A stretch of 64,000 bases of DNA from a virus: the IMG/VR virus record IMGVR_UViG_3300008261_003175; one strand, written 5' to 3'. Shown piece by piece: positions 2,421-23,910 of the stretch. Made by a program: the position numbers and the translations under genes. Numbering within the stretch: the stretch's first letter is position 1; each line of letters opens with the position of its first letter. The notes under the pieces are model-generated. The model saw nothing but the letters and a program-made list of their open reading frames with translations. It was not told the origin of the DNA and ran no database searches.

Positions 2421-3214
2421 TGATAGCAACAGAAGAAACTAGCAATTATAAAGTCAGAGGTTTCTTTAAACCAGAATCCAGTTTCCATACTATAAAAGAG
2501 TGGCAAATAATATCTAGAGAGTTTATAGATTTGCAATCTCAGGGATTTGATACACGAGGCGGAATATTGTCTGATAATCCGAGGTTGGTATCTCTAATTA
2601 ATACTTATTTTGGTTACCAATACTACGTAGAACCTCTGCAGTTTCCAAAGTTGTCTCAAAAAATGGTACTGGATTTTATAGAAGACTTTGTTAACTATCG
2701 AGTATGGGAAATGTATCATCATTTTTCCGAGTATGCTTTCGATGTAAACAGAGCGAGATTCGCTTATTTCTATTCTAGAGGAAATATAGAACCGTATGTA
2801 TTGCTCGATGAGAGATTCACTAAATCTGTGTACGGAAGCACTGATATAGAAACAATATCATATCACTGGACATCTGCAGAAGGATTAGAGAATATAGTCC
2901 AATCTATGCAGAACGGAACGCCTATTCCACTATCAACGTTCACTGTGCAATCTAAAGAGTTCTTTAGACCTGAAAGTAATTACTTGATAAAAATAAAGGG
3001 CAAATTGATAGCTGCGTTTGAATCAGATACCAAATCCTTTTCTACGGATATGGGCCGCAAAGCAGCTAACATGTTTAGATTCACTTTACCTGGTCACACA
3101 TCTAATTTATGTAAGAATTGGAAAACTTGCAATAAAAATAAAACCTATTTGTGGAACGAGATAATAGTATATCCAACTGCAATTATGAATTATAAAAAAA
3201 TACAAAAAATATAA
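2420..3214 (+). CDS. Hypothetical protein, possible ADP-ribosyltransferase-fold C-terminal domain
   Basis: YHWTS...L..I, LSTFT and WNEIIV resemble the ART strand motifs. Confidence 0.35.
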   Translation: MIATEETSNYKVRGFFKPESSFHTIKEWQIISREFIDLQSQGFDTRGGILSDNPRLVSLINTYFGYQYYVEPLQFPKLSQKMVLDFIEDFVNYRVWEMYHHFSEYAFDVNRARFAYFYSRGNIEPYVLLDERFTKSVYGSTDIETISYHWTSAEGLENIVQSMQNGTPIPLSTFTVQSKEFFRPESNYLIKIKGKLIAAFESDTKSFSTDMGRKAANMFRFTLPGHTSNLCKNWKTCNKNKTYLWNEIIVYPTAIMNYKKIQKI

Positions 3215-3543
3215 TGATAAAACTAAAAGACATACTGAACGAAGAAATAGTGAGTGATCCTAAATTGGAAGAATTCGCTGAGATCAGACATGATGGAGCA
3301 GAAAAGATAGCCACTTCTGCAAAAGAGAAAGGCGGATTTTCTATGCTTACCTACAATCACTTCATAGTTAAGCTACCCTATTATAATAAAGCTAATCAGG
3401 GTAAATTTGACATAGAAGAAGGCAAGAAAGAGTTCGAAAAAACACTAAAAAGCATATCACTCAATATGACTCAAACAGAGTTTCAAAGAGAGGTAGGTAG
3501 GTTAGAGGTGATAGGCGAACTCATTATCAAAGCCAAGAAGTAA
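3214..3543 (+). CDS. Hypothetical protein with MIKLKDILNE leader (putative head-internal)
   Basis: Shared N-terminal leader. Confidence 0.6.
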   Translation: MIKLKDILNEEIVSDPKLEEFAEIRHDGAEKIATSAKEKGGFSMLTYNHFIVKLPYYNKANQGKFDIEEGKKEFEKTLKSISLNMTQTEFQREVGRLEVIGELIIKAKK

Positions 3544-11136: not shown

Positions 11137-11346
11137 ATGAAATTCATAACGCTAACAAAGACACACGCAGCAGAAATAGCAGTCAATACGATGATGATAG
11201 TTGCTTTGGAACCGACACCAACAGGCACAACAGTGCATGTAATGGGACACTCTTCATTCTCAGTAAAGGAAAGTATAACAGAGATTCAAGACAAGATCAG
11301 AGCATCAGAAGGCTATGCAATAATAAACCACGACCCAAAAAAATAA
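11137..11346 (+). CDS. FlbD-like small protein
   Basis: I.LT...VN...I...E.TP.T......F.VKES..EI pattern. Confidence 0.55.
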   Translation: MKFITLTKTHAAEIAVNTMMIVALEPTPTGTTVHVMGHSSFSVKESITEIQDKIRASEGYAIINHDPKK

Positions 11347-11351
11347 ACGTT

Positions 11352-11666
11352 ATGATAGATAAACATTCACAAACCGAAGCGCGCGCGAACGAAAGTGTCC
11401 CGGCCCCAGGCGAGCCCGCAAGCGAGCTACGCCGTGTCCGAAGGGCAAAAAACCACCACGTCAAAGCGCAGAATTGGGAACTAGCGGCCGCATACAGAGA
11501 AGTAGAGAAGCTGTTGCAAGACCGAGAACCGAAATGCGCCAACTGCAAATACCTGTTTAGTGCTATAGGAGCGGGTCAGGGACTGATCTGCGAGTTGAAC
11601 AGGTGTCGCATACCCCACTCGGAACACAGCTGTCAGTACCATTGGTACCAACCAAAAACCAAATAA
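11352..11666 (+). CDS. Hypothetical protein with UvrB/C-like helical motif and Cys cluster
   Basis: AQNWELAAAYREVEK and CANC...C...C. Confidence 0.5.
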   Translation: MIDKHSQTEARANESVPAPGEPASELRRVRRAKNHHVKAQNWELAAAYREVEKLLQDREPKCANCKYLFSAIGAGQGLICELNRCRIPHSEHSCQYHWYQPKTK

Positions 11667-21014: not shown

Positions 21015-21242
21015 ATGGCAAAAGCAAAAACAACAGAACCAACAGCTGGGATCACATTTATAATCACCGATGCTCAAGTTAAAAAGCTAAATGAGTGGAA
21101 ACAGGCTCACAACACAATTTTCGGATTCTGTGATGAATCTGAGTACGCATATCTTTTCACAAAGACAGAAGACGGTTATAGCGCAGTAGTTAAGAACATT
21201 TATCACGATACAGAGATAGATCTTTGCGATGATGAATCTTAA
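21015..21242 (+). CDS. Hypothetical protein
   Basis: ORF track. Confidence 0.6.
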   Translation: MAKAKTTEPTAGITFIITDAQVKKLNEWKQAHNTIFGFCDESEYAYLFTKTEDGYSAVVKNIYHDTEIDLCDDES

Positions 21243-21253
21243 GAATCTTTAAC

Positions 21254-21327
21254 TGACCCTTAGCTCAGACGGTTAGAGCATCTGACTCATAATCAGAGGG
21301 TCCACGGTTCAAATCCGTGAGGGTCAA
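21254..21327 (+). tRNA. tRNA with CAT anticodon (Ile2-like or Met)
   Basis: Acceptor TGACCCT/AGGGTCA; anticodon arm TCTGA-CTCATAA-TCAGA; T arm CACGG-TTCAAAT-CCGTG. C4:G69 and C5:G68 favour Ile2. Confidence 0.9.
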
Positions 21328-21387
21328 CAAGCAGCTTCTAGGCCAGGGGAACGAAAACTCAGGAACACCTCTCAGAAAGTTGTAAAT

Positions 21388-21510
21388 AGTCAGGTGGCGG
21401 AATGGTAGACGCTATGGCAAGTAACTGAATCCTATGGAAAAGTACAATCCAATTTGGCAGTAAGTGAACCCATACCAGACGTGGAGCAGGTTCGAATCCT
21501 GTCCTGACTA
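21388..21510 (+). ncRNA. tRNA-Leu-like RNA with a 52-nt expanded anticodon loop
   Basis: Acceptor AGTCAGG/CCTGACT; Leu-type D arm TGGCGGAATGGTAGACGC; TATGG/CCATA stem; variable hairpin CCA-GACG-TGG; T loop TTCGAAT. Confidence 0.7.
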
Positions 21511-21593
21511 CAATATACTATCCGCTTTAAGCATCCGACAGTAACATCGGACTGAGGAATGTAGATGGTAAGGGGTAAGGAAAAGACCAAAAT

Positions 21594-21670
21594 AGTCAGG
21601 TGTGTATTAAAAGGACACAGCATCCAACGGATGAACGGCGGAAGTACAGGTTCGACTCCTGTCCTGACTA
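21594..21670 (+). ncRNA. tRNA-like RNA with the same acceptor stem and near-identical T arm, degenerate D and anticodon arms
   Basis: AGTCAGG...ACAGG-TTCGACT-CCTGT-CCTGACT-A; CATCC-AAC-GGATG hairpin in place of a 7-nt-loop anticodon arm. Confidence 0.65.
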
Positions 21671-21757
21671 CGAGGGGAAATAATCTCAACCAGCCCTAGT
21701 ATCATATTATAGGCGCCAATGTTGGTAAGGTTGACAAACGGGGAAAGACCCGTATAT

Positions 21758-21828
21758 TGTGACGTGATGTAACGGTAACATTACAGATTTTGATTCTGTC
21801 CTTCATGGTTCGAATCCATGCGTCACAT
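21758..21828 (+). tRNA. tRNA-Gln(TTG)
   Basis: Acceptor TGTGACG/CGTCACA; ACAGA-TTTTGAT-TCTGT; CATGG-TTCGAAT-CCATG. Confidence 0.9.
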
Positions 21829-21833
21829 CAATA

Positions 21834-21905
21834 GCCGCGTTGGTCAAGGGGTTAAGACGTGTCCCTTTCACGGACAAATCACGGGTTCGATTCCCGTACG
21901 TGGTA
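21834..21905 (+). tRNA. tRNA-Glu(TTC)
   Basis: Acceptor GCCGCGT/ACGTGGT; TGTCC-CTTTCAC-GGACA; ACGGG-TTCGATT-CCCGT. Confidence 0.9.
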
Positions 21906-21920
21906 CTAAAACTTTTAATT

Positions 21921-22196
21921 ATGAAAAAAATCATCTTCGCTGCGCTAGTCGGTATAGTGCTGACAGCAGCAACAATTCCACAGTTCTTTTATTATAATCA
22001 AACAAGAAAAGCTATTGCCGTTAGAGACGACCAAGAAGGCACTCTAGTGATTAGAACCTCAACAGGTGTACAAGTAATGGCAGCTCAGTATCCAGCTAAT
22101 AGAAGTTGGTGGATTAGCGTTACTAAACTAGCTCCTGGATTCTATACAGCAATGACACCAGACGGAGCGATCATTACTTTCTACAAGCGTCCTTAA
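21921..22196 (+). CDS. Signal peptide plus T9SS type A CTD-like small protein
   Basis: MKKIIFAALVGIVLTAA signal; IRTSTGVQV, ISVTKLAPGFY and TFYK resemble the CTD motifs. Confidence 0.55.
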   Translation: MKKIIFAALVGIVLTAATIPQFFYYNQTRKAIAVRDDQEGTLVIRTSTGVQVMAAQYPANRSWWISVTKLAPGFYTAMTPDGAIITFYKRP

Positions 22197-22558: not shown

Positions 22559-22963
22559 ATGACAATAGCTATAGTAGCACACGACAATAAAAAAGCGGAC
22601 ATAGTAGCATTCGTTCTAAAGAGAATTGAGTTTTTTAAACGCAAAGACATCAAGATCATATCCACAGGCACCACAGGCACGCACATGAAGCATGCAGGAT
22701 TAGAGAACGTAGAGTGCTTAAAATCAGGACCATTGGGAGGTGACGCTCAAATAGCCTCTCGATTGGTAGAAGGCAGTGTCGACGCAGTTATATTCTTTAT
22801 CGATCCGCTCTATTCCCATCCTCACGAAGTAGATATACATATGTTAATGAGATTGTGTAATGTATACGATATACCGTTAGTAACCAATTACTCAACAGCA
22901 TCATATCTAATTAAAGGATTAAAATACGAGCAAAATAAAATTTCAAAAAAAGTAGATTCTTAG
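22559..22963 (+). CDS. mgsA: Methylglyoxal synthase
   Basis: AHDNKK, STGTTG, SGPLGGDAQI, FFIDPL and PHEVD motifs. Confidence 0.92.
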   Translation: MTIAIVAHDNKKADIVAFVLKRIEFFKRKDIKIISTGTTGTHMKHAGLENVECLKSGPLGGDAQIASRLVEGSVDAVIFFIDPLYSHPHEVDIHMLMRLCNVYDIPLVTNYSTASYLIKGLKYEQNKISKKVDS

Positions 22964-23085: not shown

Positions 23086-23910
23086 ATGTACAACACAACA
23101 ATCTACGACGAATTAGTCCAAAAAATGAGAACTTTCTTCCTTGAAAAAGGCTACAAGGAAGTACCCGCGCAATCAAGATTATCGATCTTAGCGGCTTGCG
23201 AAAATCCACACTCTATTACTACTTTCGCCTATCAAGGAGAAGTATGGCCATTACCGCAAACAGGGCAAATGTGGTTAGAGTACGAACTGCTTAAAAATCC
23301 TGAATGGCCAGGAGTATTTTGTTTAACGACTTCTTATAGACAAGAAAAAAATCCAATTGCAGGCAGACACGAATTGATTTTTCCGATGTTTGAGTTTGAA
23401 AGTAAGGGCAATATGATCGATCTAGAAAATCTAGAGAACGAATTGCTTGCTCACCTGGGATTCGATAAACCAACGCAAGTTGATTACGATTCTTTGTGTA
23501 ACAAATACGATACTTCTATTTTAGAAGCAGAGCACGAAACAAAAATGTGGAATGAAATAGGTTCTGTTATATCTTTACAAAACTTCCCAATCAGAACTAA
23601 TCCGTTTTGGAATATGAAACATCAAGGAGGCGGAGTATTCAATAAGATAGACGTAATCTTGTACGGACAAGAAACGATAGGTAGCGCTGAAAGAAGTTGC
23701 GACGTAGAAAAGATGAGAGAGATGTTCTACACGATAGAGAATGGAAACTACTGCGCTAAATTATTCGAGCTGTTCGGAAAAGAAAGAGTAGAAAAAGAGT
23801 TAGAAGAGTTTTTATCTTTTAATTTCTTTCCAAGATTCGGAGCTGGTATAGGTATGACGAGACTAGCAAGAGCGTATGAGATATTGAAAGAGCAAGAAAT
23901 GTTTTTGTGA
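23086..23910 (+). CDS. Class II aaRS catalytic-domain-only protein (AsnRS/AspRS-like; archaeal asparagine-synthetase-like)
   Basis: Motif 1 R.FF...GY.EV, motif 2 SYRQE....RH...F.MFEFE, ETIGSAER, motif 3 GAGIGMTRL; no OB-fold anticodon domain. Confidence 0.8.
   Translation: MYNTTIYDELVQKMRTFFLEKGYKEVPAQSRLSILAACENPHSITTFAYQGEVWPLPQTGQMWLEYELLKNPEWPGVFCLTTSYRQEKNPIAGRHELIFPMFEFESKGNMIDLENLENELLAHLGFDKPTQVDYDSLCNKYDTSILEAEHETKMWNEIGSVISLQNFPIRTNPFWNMKHQGGGVFNKIDVILYGQETIGSAERSCDVEKMREMFYTIENGNYCAKLFELFGKERVEKELEEFLSFNFFPRFGAGIGMTRLARAYEILKEQEMFL

Follow-up and report, generated by a model that had tools for sequence, protein, structure and literature searches.

Results and Discussion

Two RNAs on a leucine tRNA frame

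The window, i.e., the whole stretch of 64,000 nucleotides of viral DNA which was analysed, contains two RNA genes from a family which is very large in uncultured phages; judged from their sequences, they are not decayed tRNAs. The base pairs of their common frame are under selection at the RNA level, and at least one cargo, that of copy 1, is under strict sequence selection. The explanation which we favour, with moderate confidence, is that these RNAs are tRNA-Leu-derived scaffolds carrying sequence-specific RNA modules, the cargo being the working part and the frame its carrier, since structural selection on a frame together with strict sequence selection on one cargo is the signature of a carrier with a functional module. 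The following features were assigned (positions in the window).

21254–21328, + strand: genuine tRNA-Met, first gene of the RNA array (ARAGORN; Rfam, 70.7 bits)
21388–21511, + strand: copy 1, tRNA-Leu-framed RNA, from position 1 to C74, 124 nt
21388–21394, + strand: copy 1, acceptor 5' strand AGUCAGG, 7 of 7 pairs with 21503–21509
21397–21412, + strand: copy 1, Leu-type D arm GCGGAAUGGUAGACGC (cmscan alignment to the tRNA D arm)
21413–21474, + strand: copy 1, cargo with closing stem, in place of the anticodon arm
21421–21429, + strand: copy 1, cargo half-site 1, GUAACUGAA, nearly invariant in 20 orthologs
21435–21451, + strand: copy 1, cargo tip hairpin, UGGA / 9-nt loop / UCCA, stem covarying in orthologs
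21460–21468, + strand: copy 1, cargo half-site 2, GUAAGUGAA, invariant save in one lineage
21475–21484, + strand: copy 1, Leu-type variable hairpin CCAGACGUGG, 3 bp, 100% paired in orthologs
21486–21502, + strand: copy 1, T arm GCAGG-UUCGAAU-CCUGU (cmscan and cmsearch alignments)
21503–21511, + strand: copy 1, acceptor 3' strand CCUGACU, discriminator A (21510) and C74 (21511)
21594–21671, + strand: copy 2, minimal member of the family of copy 1, 78 nt
21601–21619, + strand: copy 2, D-arm substitute UGUGU / AUUAAAAGG / ACACA (MFE and constrained folds)
21621–21633, + strand: copy 2, hairpin CAUCC-AAC-GGAUG in the place of the anticodon arm, 5 bp and 3-nt loop (read directly)
21646–21671, + strand: copy 2, T arm ACAGG-UUCGACU-CCUGU, acceptor CCUGACU, A and C (cmsearch alignment)
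21758–21906, + strand: genuine tRNA-Gln (21758–21829) and tRNA-Glu (21834–21906), end of the array (ARAGORN, Rfam), both with C74

Both copies are preceded by AAAT and share, by direct reading, the text AGTCAGG-TG ... (G/A)CAGG-TTCGA(A/C)T-CCTGT-CCTGACT-AC. In each, the acceptor stem has 7 bp, the T arm has a UUCRANU loop and the tail is A73-C74; the anticodon arm is usable in neither. The closing stem of the copy 1 cargo is UAUGG/CCAUA (21413–21417 with 21470–21474) and is invariant across 17 orthologs; half-site 2 is a direct repeat of half-site 1 with the central C replaced by G. In copy 2, the D-arm substitute is a 5-bp stem with a 9-nt loop ending in GG, and the hairpin CAUCC-AAC-GGAUG lies within the hairpin region of the computed fold, in which a 12-nt linker separates it from the T arm. 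An earlier note, made from the letters of this region, had ascribed to copy 2 unrelated hairpins and a 3-nt AAC loop, in agreement with the direct reading and the fold.

Comparison with decoding tRNAs and known RNA classes

In the region, ARAGORN found only tRNA-Met, tRNA-Gln and tRNA-Glu and called neither copy 1 nor copy 2. Rfam searches at gathering thresholds with standard filters gave the same three tRNAs and neither copy. Copy 1 matched the Rfam tRNA family RF00005 with 36.7 bits (gathering score 29) with permissive filters only; the alignment covered all 71 model positions and placed a 52-nt insertion exactly in the anticodon loop. This cmscan alignment bears out the claim of the earlier note that a Leu-type D arm and variable hairpin were kept around such an insert. 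Copy 2 had no Rfam family match at E values up to 10 with permissive filters. A 5-bp anticodon stem with a 7-nt anticodon loop is absent; copy 1 has the 52-nt insert and copy 2 the 3-nt loop. No tmRNA (tRNA-Ala-like domain with G3:U70, and a tag frame) was detected by ARAGORN, and pair 3:70 is U-A.

When 50,697 phage records were searched with copy 1 by blastn, only short generic matches to tRNA arms (D arm, or T arm plus acceptor) were obtained, and megablast of 16 kb against cultured phages gave zero close relatives. Tenacibaculum phage pT24 contains odd tRNAs, and the crAss-like phage cr4_1 an unannotated tRNA-like RNA (33–41 bits); neither is a clear member of the family. Full-text literature searches found no published description of the family.

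Size and composition of the family

The query for the family was an exact 24-nt pattern of T arm plus acceptor, which both copies in the window match exactly. It occurred in at least 120 IMG/VR phage stretches, with up to 6 copies per locus, and in 22 of 32 million GTDB contigs, all of them MAG contigs and mostly short; on account of these few and exclusively MAG-derived matches, a host tRNA-Leu was rejected as the source of the frame. From the matches listed, at least about 190 copies of the frame were found, and at least 156 unique elements, 54–191 nt in length, fell into at least 136 unrelated cargo clusters. ARAGORN called 39 of 193 listed family copies, with scattered and nonsensical anticodons.

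A covariance model of the shared frame, R1, was built in this analysis. It scored copy 1 with 67 bits (E = 4e-16) and copy 2 with 53.2 bits (E = 2.5e-12); the genuine tRNAs of the window reached 25.4 bits or less, and the rest of the 64 kb never scored above the genuine tRNAs. The acceptor stem, T arm and discriminator A, which the earlier note had regarded as common to both copies, are thus established by direct reading as well as by the frame E values, and chance is far from sufficient to account for them. Across homologs, a conserved top half was seen with a variable bottom half, as that note had suspected, and random decay across the arms was not seen.

Most listed members retain U8, A14, the D-loop GG and A73. 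The canonical Leu-type D arm is present in 117 of 184 listed members and has been lost in copy 2 and about one third of the family; the D loop serves as second insertion site at loci L155, L260 and L269. A Leu anticodon is absent from every AGUCAGG-frame member listed, including those of canonical length. The 18-nt D arm recurs unchanged in real phage tRNA-Leu genes, which make up 42 of 96 D-arm matches. When expanded Leu-type frames were retrieved via the D arm only, 24 out of 42 carried AGUCAGG/CCUGACU; this is far commoner than processing alone needs and leaves room for recognition of the frame itself.

C74 was found in 182 of 184 listed family members versus 230 of 233 genuine tRNAs from the same loci, and T at position -1 in 82% versus 72%, respectively; the full ACCA is encoded by a few family members. 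Since the U-1 and C74 flanks are common to the family and the genuine tRNAs, one maturation pathway is likely. A Bacteroidota -7 box, TAnnTTTG, ends 2–8 nt upstream of 14 of 184 listed members, with 0.9 expected; such boxes are not enriched in the window itself. Counts of 6-mers across cargos showed enrichment only of D-arm remnants and a few T-loop-like hairpins, i.e., no universal motif, and Rfam searches with forty elements (E up to 0.01) gave tRNA matches only.

Covariation and conservation in orthologs of copy 1

Twenty distinct orthologs of copy 1 with unrelated flanks were obtained with a search pattern which left the half-site positions free (as N), and pairs were counted in 17 aligned ones. 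Lakes, for example Lake Mendota, are among the sources of these orthologs and of the MAG contigs. The acceptor, D, closing, variable and T helices were 100% paired in these 17; slid controls gave 24–42%. Compensatory changes affected 5 of 7 pairs in the acceptor stem, 2 of 3 in the D stem, 1 of 3 in the variable hairpin (A-U to G-C) and 3 of 5 in the T stem, which sum to 11 for the frame helices; in the cargo, they affected 3 of 4 pairs in the tip hairpin and none of the 5 in the closing stem. Tip hairpin stems such as GGGA/UCCC, UGAGA/UCUCA and AGG/CCU occurred among the orthologs. Altogether, 14 double-change pairs were observed versus 4.0 ± 1.3 in shuffles, and none of 500 shuffles reached 14.

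On each side of this covarying hairpin stands one half-site with the consensus GUAA(C/G)UGAA. Variants among the 20 orthologs were restricted to G to A, C to U and U to C in half-site 1, each in single lineages, and to one G to A lineage in half-site 2; the cores of the copy 1 cargo are thus more conserved in sequence than the frame. A candidate duplex between the half-sites would consist of 6 Watson-Crick and 4 G.A or A.G pairs; its columns hardly vary, and one U to C change breaks a proposed pair. RNAalifold with six orthologs returned a non-tRNA fold with little covariation, and the explicit pair counts were used instead. The insert of copy 1 had been described as structured in the earlier note. 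This holds for the comparative pairing in orthologs but not for thermodynamic folding, by which the 52 nt fold no better than shuffles (z = +0.42).

The frame around this cargo is less uniform. N73 among the 20 orthologs is mostly A, with G at loci L256 and L258 and U at L149, which argues against obligatory leucylation. At L257 the copy 1 cargo is found with the acceptor GGCUAGG/CCUAGCC, the changes including pairs 1:72 and 3:70. The ortholog at L146 follows the stop of an ORF and is itself followed by an intrinsic terminator, i.e., it is a stand-alone gene. For copy 2, zero orthologs were found in the viral scans and the metagenome scan, and its cargo is unique so far.

Genomic neighbourhood

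Both copies of the window are part of a same-strand operon, in which conserved spacer RNAs and genuine tRNAs flank them. In related phages the ends of the array are kept and the interior differs; locus L148 has two other elements and small ORFs where the window has copy 2 and tRNA-Gln, and micro-ORFs begin there right after the elements. Identical elements were found in unrelated flanks. In 16 loci, elements have genes for T5orf172/GIY-YIG-type endonucleases in their vicinity; the window itself contains a SegE-like gene of this kind. A sigma-70-like match at 21731–21758 extends onto the 5' end of tRNA-Gln and has probably arisen by chance.

No protein family was associated with the elements over a range of about 7 kb, the best being DUF932 in 15 of 143 loci; when 2036 ORFs from 121 loci were clustered all against all, no family extended beyond 15 loci. 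None of the window proteins tracks the cargo type of copy 1. The synthetase-like 23086 protein has a weak class II D/K/N core (Pfam, E = 1.5e-10), its best PDB match is AsnRS (E = 0.0014), and an NCBIfam match is absent; tblastn of this protein and seven neighbouring ORFs against the 251 loci (2.1 Mb) retrieved in the family scans gave zero matches. A search for antisense targets of the two cargos on both strands of the rest of the window gave no match at E values up to 1.

Proposed mode of action

In the favoured explanation, both loci would be small non-decoding RNA genes whose frame descends from a class II tRNA-Leu; this frame comprises the acceptor stem and T arm, in most cases also the D arm, and the N73-C74 tail. 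Host tRNA maturation enzymes probably excise the RNA precisely from the phage transcript, by an RNase P cut at the 5' end and by trimming and CCA completion at the 3' end, and the frame probably confers a compact, nuclease-resistant L shape. The cargo, in place of the anticodon arm, would then do the work by binding a partner. That of copy 1 may be regarded as a rod with a 5-bp closing stem, the half-sites on opposite strands and a freely covarying tip hairpin; its half-sites would fit a site for sequence-specific docking, the simplest partners being a dimeric protein or another RNA. Copy 2 would be a minimal member with a short cargo.

A wider version of this explanation, which we put forward tentatively, is that the family forms a natural, modular system for the display of RNA, with cassette-like exchange, comparable at the RNA level to islands of anti-defence genes. 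The phages, with freshwater bacteria and probably Bacteroidota as hosts, would mount many different sequence-specific RNA ligands on one frame. These ligands could act in the manner of aptamers, as decoys or sponges, on proteins of host defence, RNA processing or regulation. Copy 1 would in this case be a decoy common to many phages, with half-sites binding a dimeric host or phage protein.

It appears unlikely that the frame itself is the working part, i.e., that the RNAs are tRNA mimics which soak up, or are used by, readers of the acceptor/T-arm minihelix. Such readers could be a tRNA-targeting defence toxin, a tRNA-modifying or CCA-adding enzyme, EF-Tu or LeuRS; with LeuRS, the RNAs would become Leu-charged non-decoding carriers. 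In all these cases the cargo would do no more than prevent decoding or tune the mimic. Mimicry would suit a top half which is the constant part in the at least about 190 copies, the retention of U8, A14, the D-loop GG and A73 by most and of the Leu-type D arm by 117 of 184 listed members, and the dominance of the AGUCAGG frame over other frames; besides, the anticodon is not read by LeuRS (PMC7373986). However, the acceptor changes at 5 of 7 pairs with the same cargo, including 1:72 and 3:70 at L257, and two orthologs have G, and one U, as discriminator, which is hard to square with sequence-specific reading of the acceptor end or obligatory leucylation. The Leu-type D arm is dispensed with in copy 2 and about a third of members, and a blocking role leaves unexplained why cargo cores surpass the frame in conservation. 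The role as amino-acid donors which the earlier note had considered has lost ground, with N73 being A, G or U in orthologs of copy 1 and the 23086 protein having no homolog in 251 loci. A role as decoys for tRNA-targeting toxins, likewise considered there, is conceivable.

Improbable, too, is a role of the tRNA-like structures as mere punctuation, by which they would only cue RNase P and 3' enzymes to free flanking spacer RNAs and mRNAs. Parallels exist in mitochondrial tRNA punctuation and in plant t-elements, and the setting of the window copies in a same-strand operon amid conserved spacer RNAs and genuine tRNAs would be suitable, as would the micro-ORFs of L148, which start just past elements, and the position of 77 of 184 listed members within 300 nt of another tRNA-like gene. 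The other 107 of 184, i.e., over half, are solitary, being separated by over 300 nt from the nearest tRNA or sister copy; the ortholog at L146, with its own terminator, has no downstream RNA to free; and some members have a promoter box set for transcription start at position 1. Moreover, punctuation would not need a cargo, yet the copy 1 cores are nearly invariant in 20 orthologs with unrelated flanks and more constrained than the frame. The earlier suggestion of mere processing signals is thus not upheld.

We consider it slightly less probable again that selection acts on the DNA, with the constant 25-nt ends serving as recombination or homing boundaries for cassette exchange and the RNA fold being a relic. 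The exchanged interior of the array between kept ends in the window and L148, the identical elements in unrelated flanks and the T5orf172/GIY-YIG-type genes near elements in 16 loci (with the SegE-like one in the window) would all be in line with it, but the compensatory double changes in the frame helices of the 17 orthologs show selection on RNA pairing and not on DNA identity. The ends may well undergo exchange, but this would follow from the shared frame and would accompany an RNA function.

The weakest explanations, which we regard as very improbable, are an interrupted tRNA-Leu in copy 1 which is spliced to a decoding tRNA, or decaying pseudogenes in both copies: every Leu-type feature outside the anticodon loop is kept and the insert sits exactly in the loop, but at 52 nt it is far shorter than group I tRNA introns (in bacteria roughly 200 nt or more), it matches no intron or ribozyme family in Rfam at E values up to 10, it is the most conserved part of copy 1, the opposite of an intron, its deletion between the repeats, read from the sequence, leaves a 12-nt loop lacking a Leu anticodon, no AGUCAGG-frame member listed has such an anticodon either, even at canonical length, and 100% pairing with compensatory changes is unexpected from decay. 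Splicing to an ordinary tRNA-Leu, which had been named earlier as the contrary case, finds no support, in view of the well conserved cores, the missing intron match and the lack of a Leu loop upon removal.

Comparison with known systems

For the carrier explanation, a precedent is the engineered tRNA scaffold of Ponchon and Dardel, in which anticodon-arm inserts are processed and protected in E. coli and the chimera is recognised by cellular tRNA factors (PMC3753655). As in the family, folded RNA is inserted at the anticodon stem-loop of a tRNA which otherwise retains its acceptor stem and its T and D arms (PMC3753655). The scaffold is man-made, whereas the natural family also inserts in the D loop or drops the D arm, as in copy 2.

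Class II tRNA-Leu (RF00005) is similar in its 7-bp acceptor, U8, the D arm GCGGAAUGGUAGACGC with GG, the UUCGAAU T arm and mostly A73, and copy 1 has in addition the short Leu-type variable hairpin. The copies differ in lacking a 7-nt anticodon loop or anticodon, and N73 is not fixed among orthologs; in E. coli, A73 is a major identity element for LeuRS.

T4 species 1 RNA (rnaC) and rnaD are likewise stable anticodon-less RNAs, encoded in the tRNA cluster of the phage; within its 3'-terminal 95 nt, rnaC has an acceptor-like stem, ACGGAAC/GUUUCGU, and a T arm, CCGGG-UUCGAAU-CCCGG. However, rnaC scored 22.6 bits on R1, no better than ordinary tRNAs of T4, carries 45 nt of extra sequence 5' of the tRNA-like part and lacks a Leu-type D arm; it is a single conserved sequence in T4-like phages (740 records) and not a frame with many cargos. 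T5 RNA1 (misc_RNA, AY692264, 30504–30647), by inspection, has a Leu-type D arm, GCCGGAAUUGGUAGACGG, a T arm, GAAGG-UUCAACU-CCUUC, and roughly 85 nt replacing the anticodon arm, and lies within a tRNA cluster. It differs in giving no R1 match at E values up to 0.1 and no Rfam tRNA match at E values up to 1; its acceptor stem, moreover, contains two U.U mismatches, and the 3' strand of this stem is preceded by 2 extra nt. Of T5 rna2, the 3'-terminal 70 nt scored 25 bits on R1, in the range of ordinary tRNAs. The T5 RNAs gave no evidence of a shared frame with exchangeable cargo, and the resemblance of RNA1 is, by analogy, a likeness of design.

YrlA-type Y RNAs, which are associated with Ro60/Rsr, are also non-decoding, have a tRNA-like module and are in part phage-encoded (PMC4201824). 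The region had no Rfam match to Y RNA at E values up to 10, and a TROVE/Ro60 domain was absent among the 83 ORFs of the 64-kb window at E values up to 1e-4. In YrlA, the tRNA-like module is reportedly internal, and the ends of the RNA form the Ro-binding stem.

Significance

Phage tRNA clusters have contained unexplained stable RNAs since the 1970s (T4 species 1 and 2, T5 RNA1 and RNA2). The family follows the same design principle as these T4 and T5 RNAs at a much larger scale, i.e., one tRNA-derived frame with more than 100 unrelated cargos in hundreds of uncultured phage contigs. If the favoured explanation is true, it would represent a new class of phage small RNAs, which standard annotation has missed or mislabelled as odd tRNAs, and a natural precedent for the tRNA-scaffold trick of RNA engineering. 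Copy 1 would be a good entry point, since its invariant half-sites give a clean mutational target. The family as a whole would supply a large collection of RNA modules which have defined ends and have passed natural selection, and these could be expressed and used as baits for their partners.

The RNA array of the window

The window appears to be a piece of a phage genome. It contains small ORFs on the same strand, and domain matches were obtained to a T4-like terminase, baseplate gp25, thymidylate synthase and a SegE-like endonuclease; a search of 50,697 phage records gave no close relative. A gene-free stretch of about 650 nt, flanked by ORFs 21015-21242 and 21921-22196, is occupied by an RNA array:

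21254-21328, tRNA-Met
spacer of 59 nt
21388-21511, + strand, copy 1
spacer of 82 nt
21594-21671, + strand, copy 2
spacer of 86 nt
tRNA-Gln, followed by tRNA-Glu, the last two genes

Directly after the array, an unusual auxiliary metabolic gene, a phage-encoded methylglyoxal synthase, is present at 22559-22963 (NCBIfam PRK05234, E 2.8e-45).

Copies 1 and 2 have in common the 5' end AAAU-AGUCAGG-UG and the 3' end (G/A)CAGG-UUCGA(A/C)U-CCUGU-CCUGACU-AC. The earlier note had described them as RNAs with a common top half and no usable anticodon arm, which sequence and alignments showed to be accurate. Neither was called by ARAGORN or by Rfam in gathering mode. With permissive filters, copy 1 matched the Rfam tRNA model with 36.7 bits and 71 of 71 positions aligned, a 52-nt insertion being placed in the anticodon loop. 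Copy 2 was not matched by Rfam even then; in the position of the D arm it has a stem of 5 bp whose loop contains GG, and this is accompanied by a 5-bp hairpin capped by an AAC triloop. R1, a covariance model of the frame (acceptor stem, T arm, usually D arm, and N73-C74 tail), scored copy 1 with 67 bits and copy 2 with 53 bits, versus at most 25 bits for the genuine tRNAs of the window, and gave no further copy elsewhere in the 64 kb. The RNA replacing the anticodon arm is termed cargo here.

A large family of phage RNAs

Both copies genuinely belong to a large family of phage RNAs with a tRNA-Leu frame, and no description of this family was found in the literature. The 24-nt sequence of T arm and acceptor was present in at least 120 IMG/VR stretches and in 22 GTDB contigs, all of them MAG fragments; 12 of the latter were binned as Bacteroidota, and the others, with scattered affiliations, are probably mis-binned phage DNA. 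Loci carry up to six copies. Among the matches listed, elements are 54-191 nt long, and 136 unrelated clusters of middles were obtained from 156 unique elements. ARAGORN called 39 of 193 copies, with scattered and mostly nonsense anticodons, and a Leu anticodon is absent even from the four genes of canonical length that use the AGUCAGG frame. The tRNA model was the only match (34-45 bits) in an Rfam scan of 40 elements.

The frame invariance seen with the 24-nt pattern is partly an effect of the search. A second scan, anchored on the 18-nt Leu-type D arm alone, yielded 96 new matches, 42 of ordinary tRNA-Leu length, mostly with other acceptor stems, and 42 with expanded middles of 39-158 nt. 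Since 18 of the expanded matches were found on other self-complementary acceptor stems (24 on AGUCAGG-type frames), the design extends beyond a single frame sequence.

Other RNAs were encountered on the fetched contigs (designated L). A genuine-looking phage tRNA-Leu(UAG) of 75 nt without a long variable arm (L152:1102-1176) has a family-like D loop and T arm and a different acceptor stem. L016:4124-4186, part of an array that also holds tRNAs and family members, matched Rfam freshwater-1 (RF02979) with 70.1 bits against a gathering score of 72; such arrays thus include at least one RNA from lake metagenomes that is catalogued without an explanation. In crAss-like phage cr4_1 (NC_055893, about 67843-67923; L144:1444-1524) an unannotated tRNA-like RNA, uncalled by ARAGORN, combines acceptor AGUAAG(U)/(C)CUUACU-AC, T arm, D arm and an anticodon-type loop of 8 nt; with 38 bits by R1, it may be a distant family relative in a human-gut phage. 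Tenacibaculum phage pT24 contains two annotated "tRNA-Undet" genes (L143:2789-2868, 3156-3235) with enlarged anticodon loops, on which ARAGORN forces Ile-UAU at position 37; they adjoin a CUA suppressor-type tRNA and an odd "tRNA-Pro" rejected by ARAGORN.

Selection on the frame

Orthologs of copy 1 were searched for with its cargo, not its frame, which was thus left free to vary. This gave 20 distinct orthologs, located on viral contigs and on contigs of lake or marine metagenomes; 17 of them were aligned. All frame helices were 100% base-paired, and slid controls were 24-42% paired. Changes on both sides had occurred in 5 of 7 pairs of the acceptor stem, 2 of 3 of the D stem, 1 of 3 of the variable hairpin, 3 of 5 of the T stem and 3 of 4 of the cargo tip hairpin, in total 14 versus 4.0 ± 1.3 in shuffles (none of 500 reached 14); a six-sequence alignment gave the same pairing picture. 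In L257 the acceptor stem is GGCUAGG/CCUAGCC. Elements were 81-94% identical across contigs with non-aligning 250-nt flanks (L155, with a D-loop insert, left out). Selection acts on the frame at the RNA level, and the frame sequence itself is changeable. Random decay, which the earlier note had opposed to a conserved top and variable bottom half, does not describe these homologs, considering the intact frame helices and the diversity of middles.

The cargo of copy 1

The cargo is the most constrained part of copy 1. Its closing stem UAUGG/CCAUA is invariant in the 17 orthologs and encloses half-site 1 GUAACUGAA, then a CC/GG pair step and the variable tip hairpin, and finally half-site 2 GUAAGUGAA. 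Both half-site cores were left as N in the metagenome search pattern, yet they were nearly unchanged in the recovered orthologs; variants (G->A, C->U and U->C in half-site 1, G->A in half-site 2) occurred in single lineages only. The half-sites, one on each strand of the cargo rod, repeat each other in direct orientation. They could form an antiparallel duplex of 10 pairs, 6 Watson-Crick interleaved with 4 G.A/A.G, around a central C-G, which would have pseudo-two-fold symmetry. The C->U variant keeps the proposed central pair as U.G, the U->C variant breaks one proposed pair, and, because the columns are otherwise invariant, the pairing is only a proposal. Conservation this strict, in a cargo whose frame drifts, suggests that the cargo is recognized by its sequence.

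Three orthologs (L155:6053-6221, L269:3748-3905, L260:10807-10937) contain an extra D-loop insert of 10-50 nt; the D loop is thus a second cargo site, and the frame has two insertion sites.

The cargo of copy 2 had no second occurrence in the viral and metagenome scans. L148, from a relative of the window's phage (69.6% identity over 2.6 kb of shared early region), carries an ortholog of copy 1 and shares tRNA-Glu with the window; what lies between these two genes is copy 2 and tRNA-Gln in the window, and two other family members and small ORFs in L148. Small ORFs at L148:10817-10935 and 11304-11540, one encoding a 33-aa hydrophobic peptide, begin directly after family members in the common context AAAAAAUAAAAGUU(U)AUG.

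Maturation and gene context

Position -1 is T in 82% of 184 family members and in 72% of 233 genuine tRNAs of the same loci; position 74 is C in 182/184 and 230/233, respectively, and position 75 is A or T in 163/184 members and mostly so in the tRNAs. A few members encode the full ACCA. This likeness suggests that the same enzymes probably finish both. The genuine tRNA genes of L001-L142 and the window almost always encode C74 and not C75-A76 (N73-C-A/T-A; in the window at 21328, 21829-21830 and 21906), a pattern suggestive of unusual 3' maturation, in which the RNA would be cleaved after C74 or the CCA would be repaired in part.

That the elements are mere processing marks in a transcript, as the earlier note had also considered, is less likely. 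The Bacteroidota -7 promoter box TAnnTTTG ended 2-8 nt upstream of 14 members (0.9 expected), most commonly with a gap of 4 nt, a spacing at which transcription would start at position 1. Furthermore, 107 of 184 members have no tRNA or sister copy within 300 nt, and the L146 ortholog of copy 1 is a solitary element with an ORF stop before it and an intrinsic terminator after it.

A leader hairpin lies about 5-7 nt 5' of tRNA or tRNA-like genes, in the window at 21738-21751 directly upstream of tRNA-Gln. Its GAAAGA loop is invariant, and its stem of 4-5 bp covaries (CGGG/CCCG in the window; CUCG/CGAG and GCUG/CAGC elsewhere). The hairpin precedes 17 family members; the motif showed no overall enrichment versus control loops. 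The tRNA-Met/copy 1 spacer contains, at 21339-21378, the motif AGGCCA-N-GGGA-N-CGAAAACUCAGGAAC-N-CCUCUCAGAA, which had no Rfam match and recurs with 91-92% identity, again close to family members, in L104:1004-1041 and L041:5164-5197.

No protein family accompanies the RNAs; T5orf172-type endonucleases (16 loci), DUF932 (15) and terminase (14) came closest. ORF 23086-23910 encodes a 274-aa divergent class II (Asp/Lys/Asn-type) synthetase catalytic core without an anticodon-binding domain, of weak similarity (Pfam PF00152, E 1.5e-10; best PDB match AsnRS, E 0.0014; no NCBIfam match); a link to the family was rejected, as no homolog was found in 251 loci. TROVE, RtcB or RNA ligase domains were absent from the 83 window ORFs, and neither cargo gave an antisense match elsewhere in the window.

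Comparison with known systems

T4 rnaC has a tRNA-like 3' part, but scores with R1 no higher than ordinary tRNAs; T5 RNA1 resembles the family by eye (Leu-type D arm, T arm, long middle), but gave no match with R1 or with the Rfam tRNA model. The resemblance is one of design, not shown homology. Of the roles suggested in the earlier note, that of amino-acid donor is disfavored, since the discriminator varies among copy 1 orthologs (G in two, U in one), which argues against a need for charging. That the frame itself is the working part, as a tRNA mimic, appears unlikely, and other explanations also rank below a carrier frame with functional cargo. The latter would apply to both copies and is, with moderate confidence, the most likely mechanism. 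The nearest functioning parallel to it is an engineered one, the tRNA scaffold, whose anticodon-arm inserts undergo processing and are protected in E. coli (PMC3753655). The anticodon is not read by LeuRS (PMC7373986), and this may be why a Leu frame tolerates such surgery.
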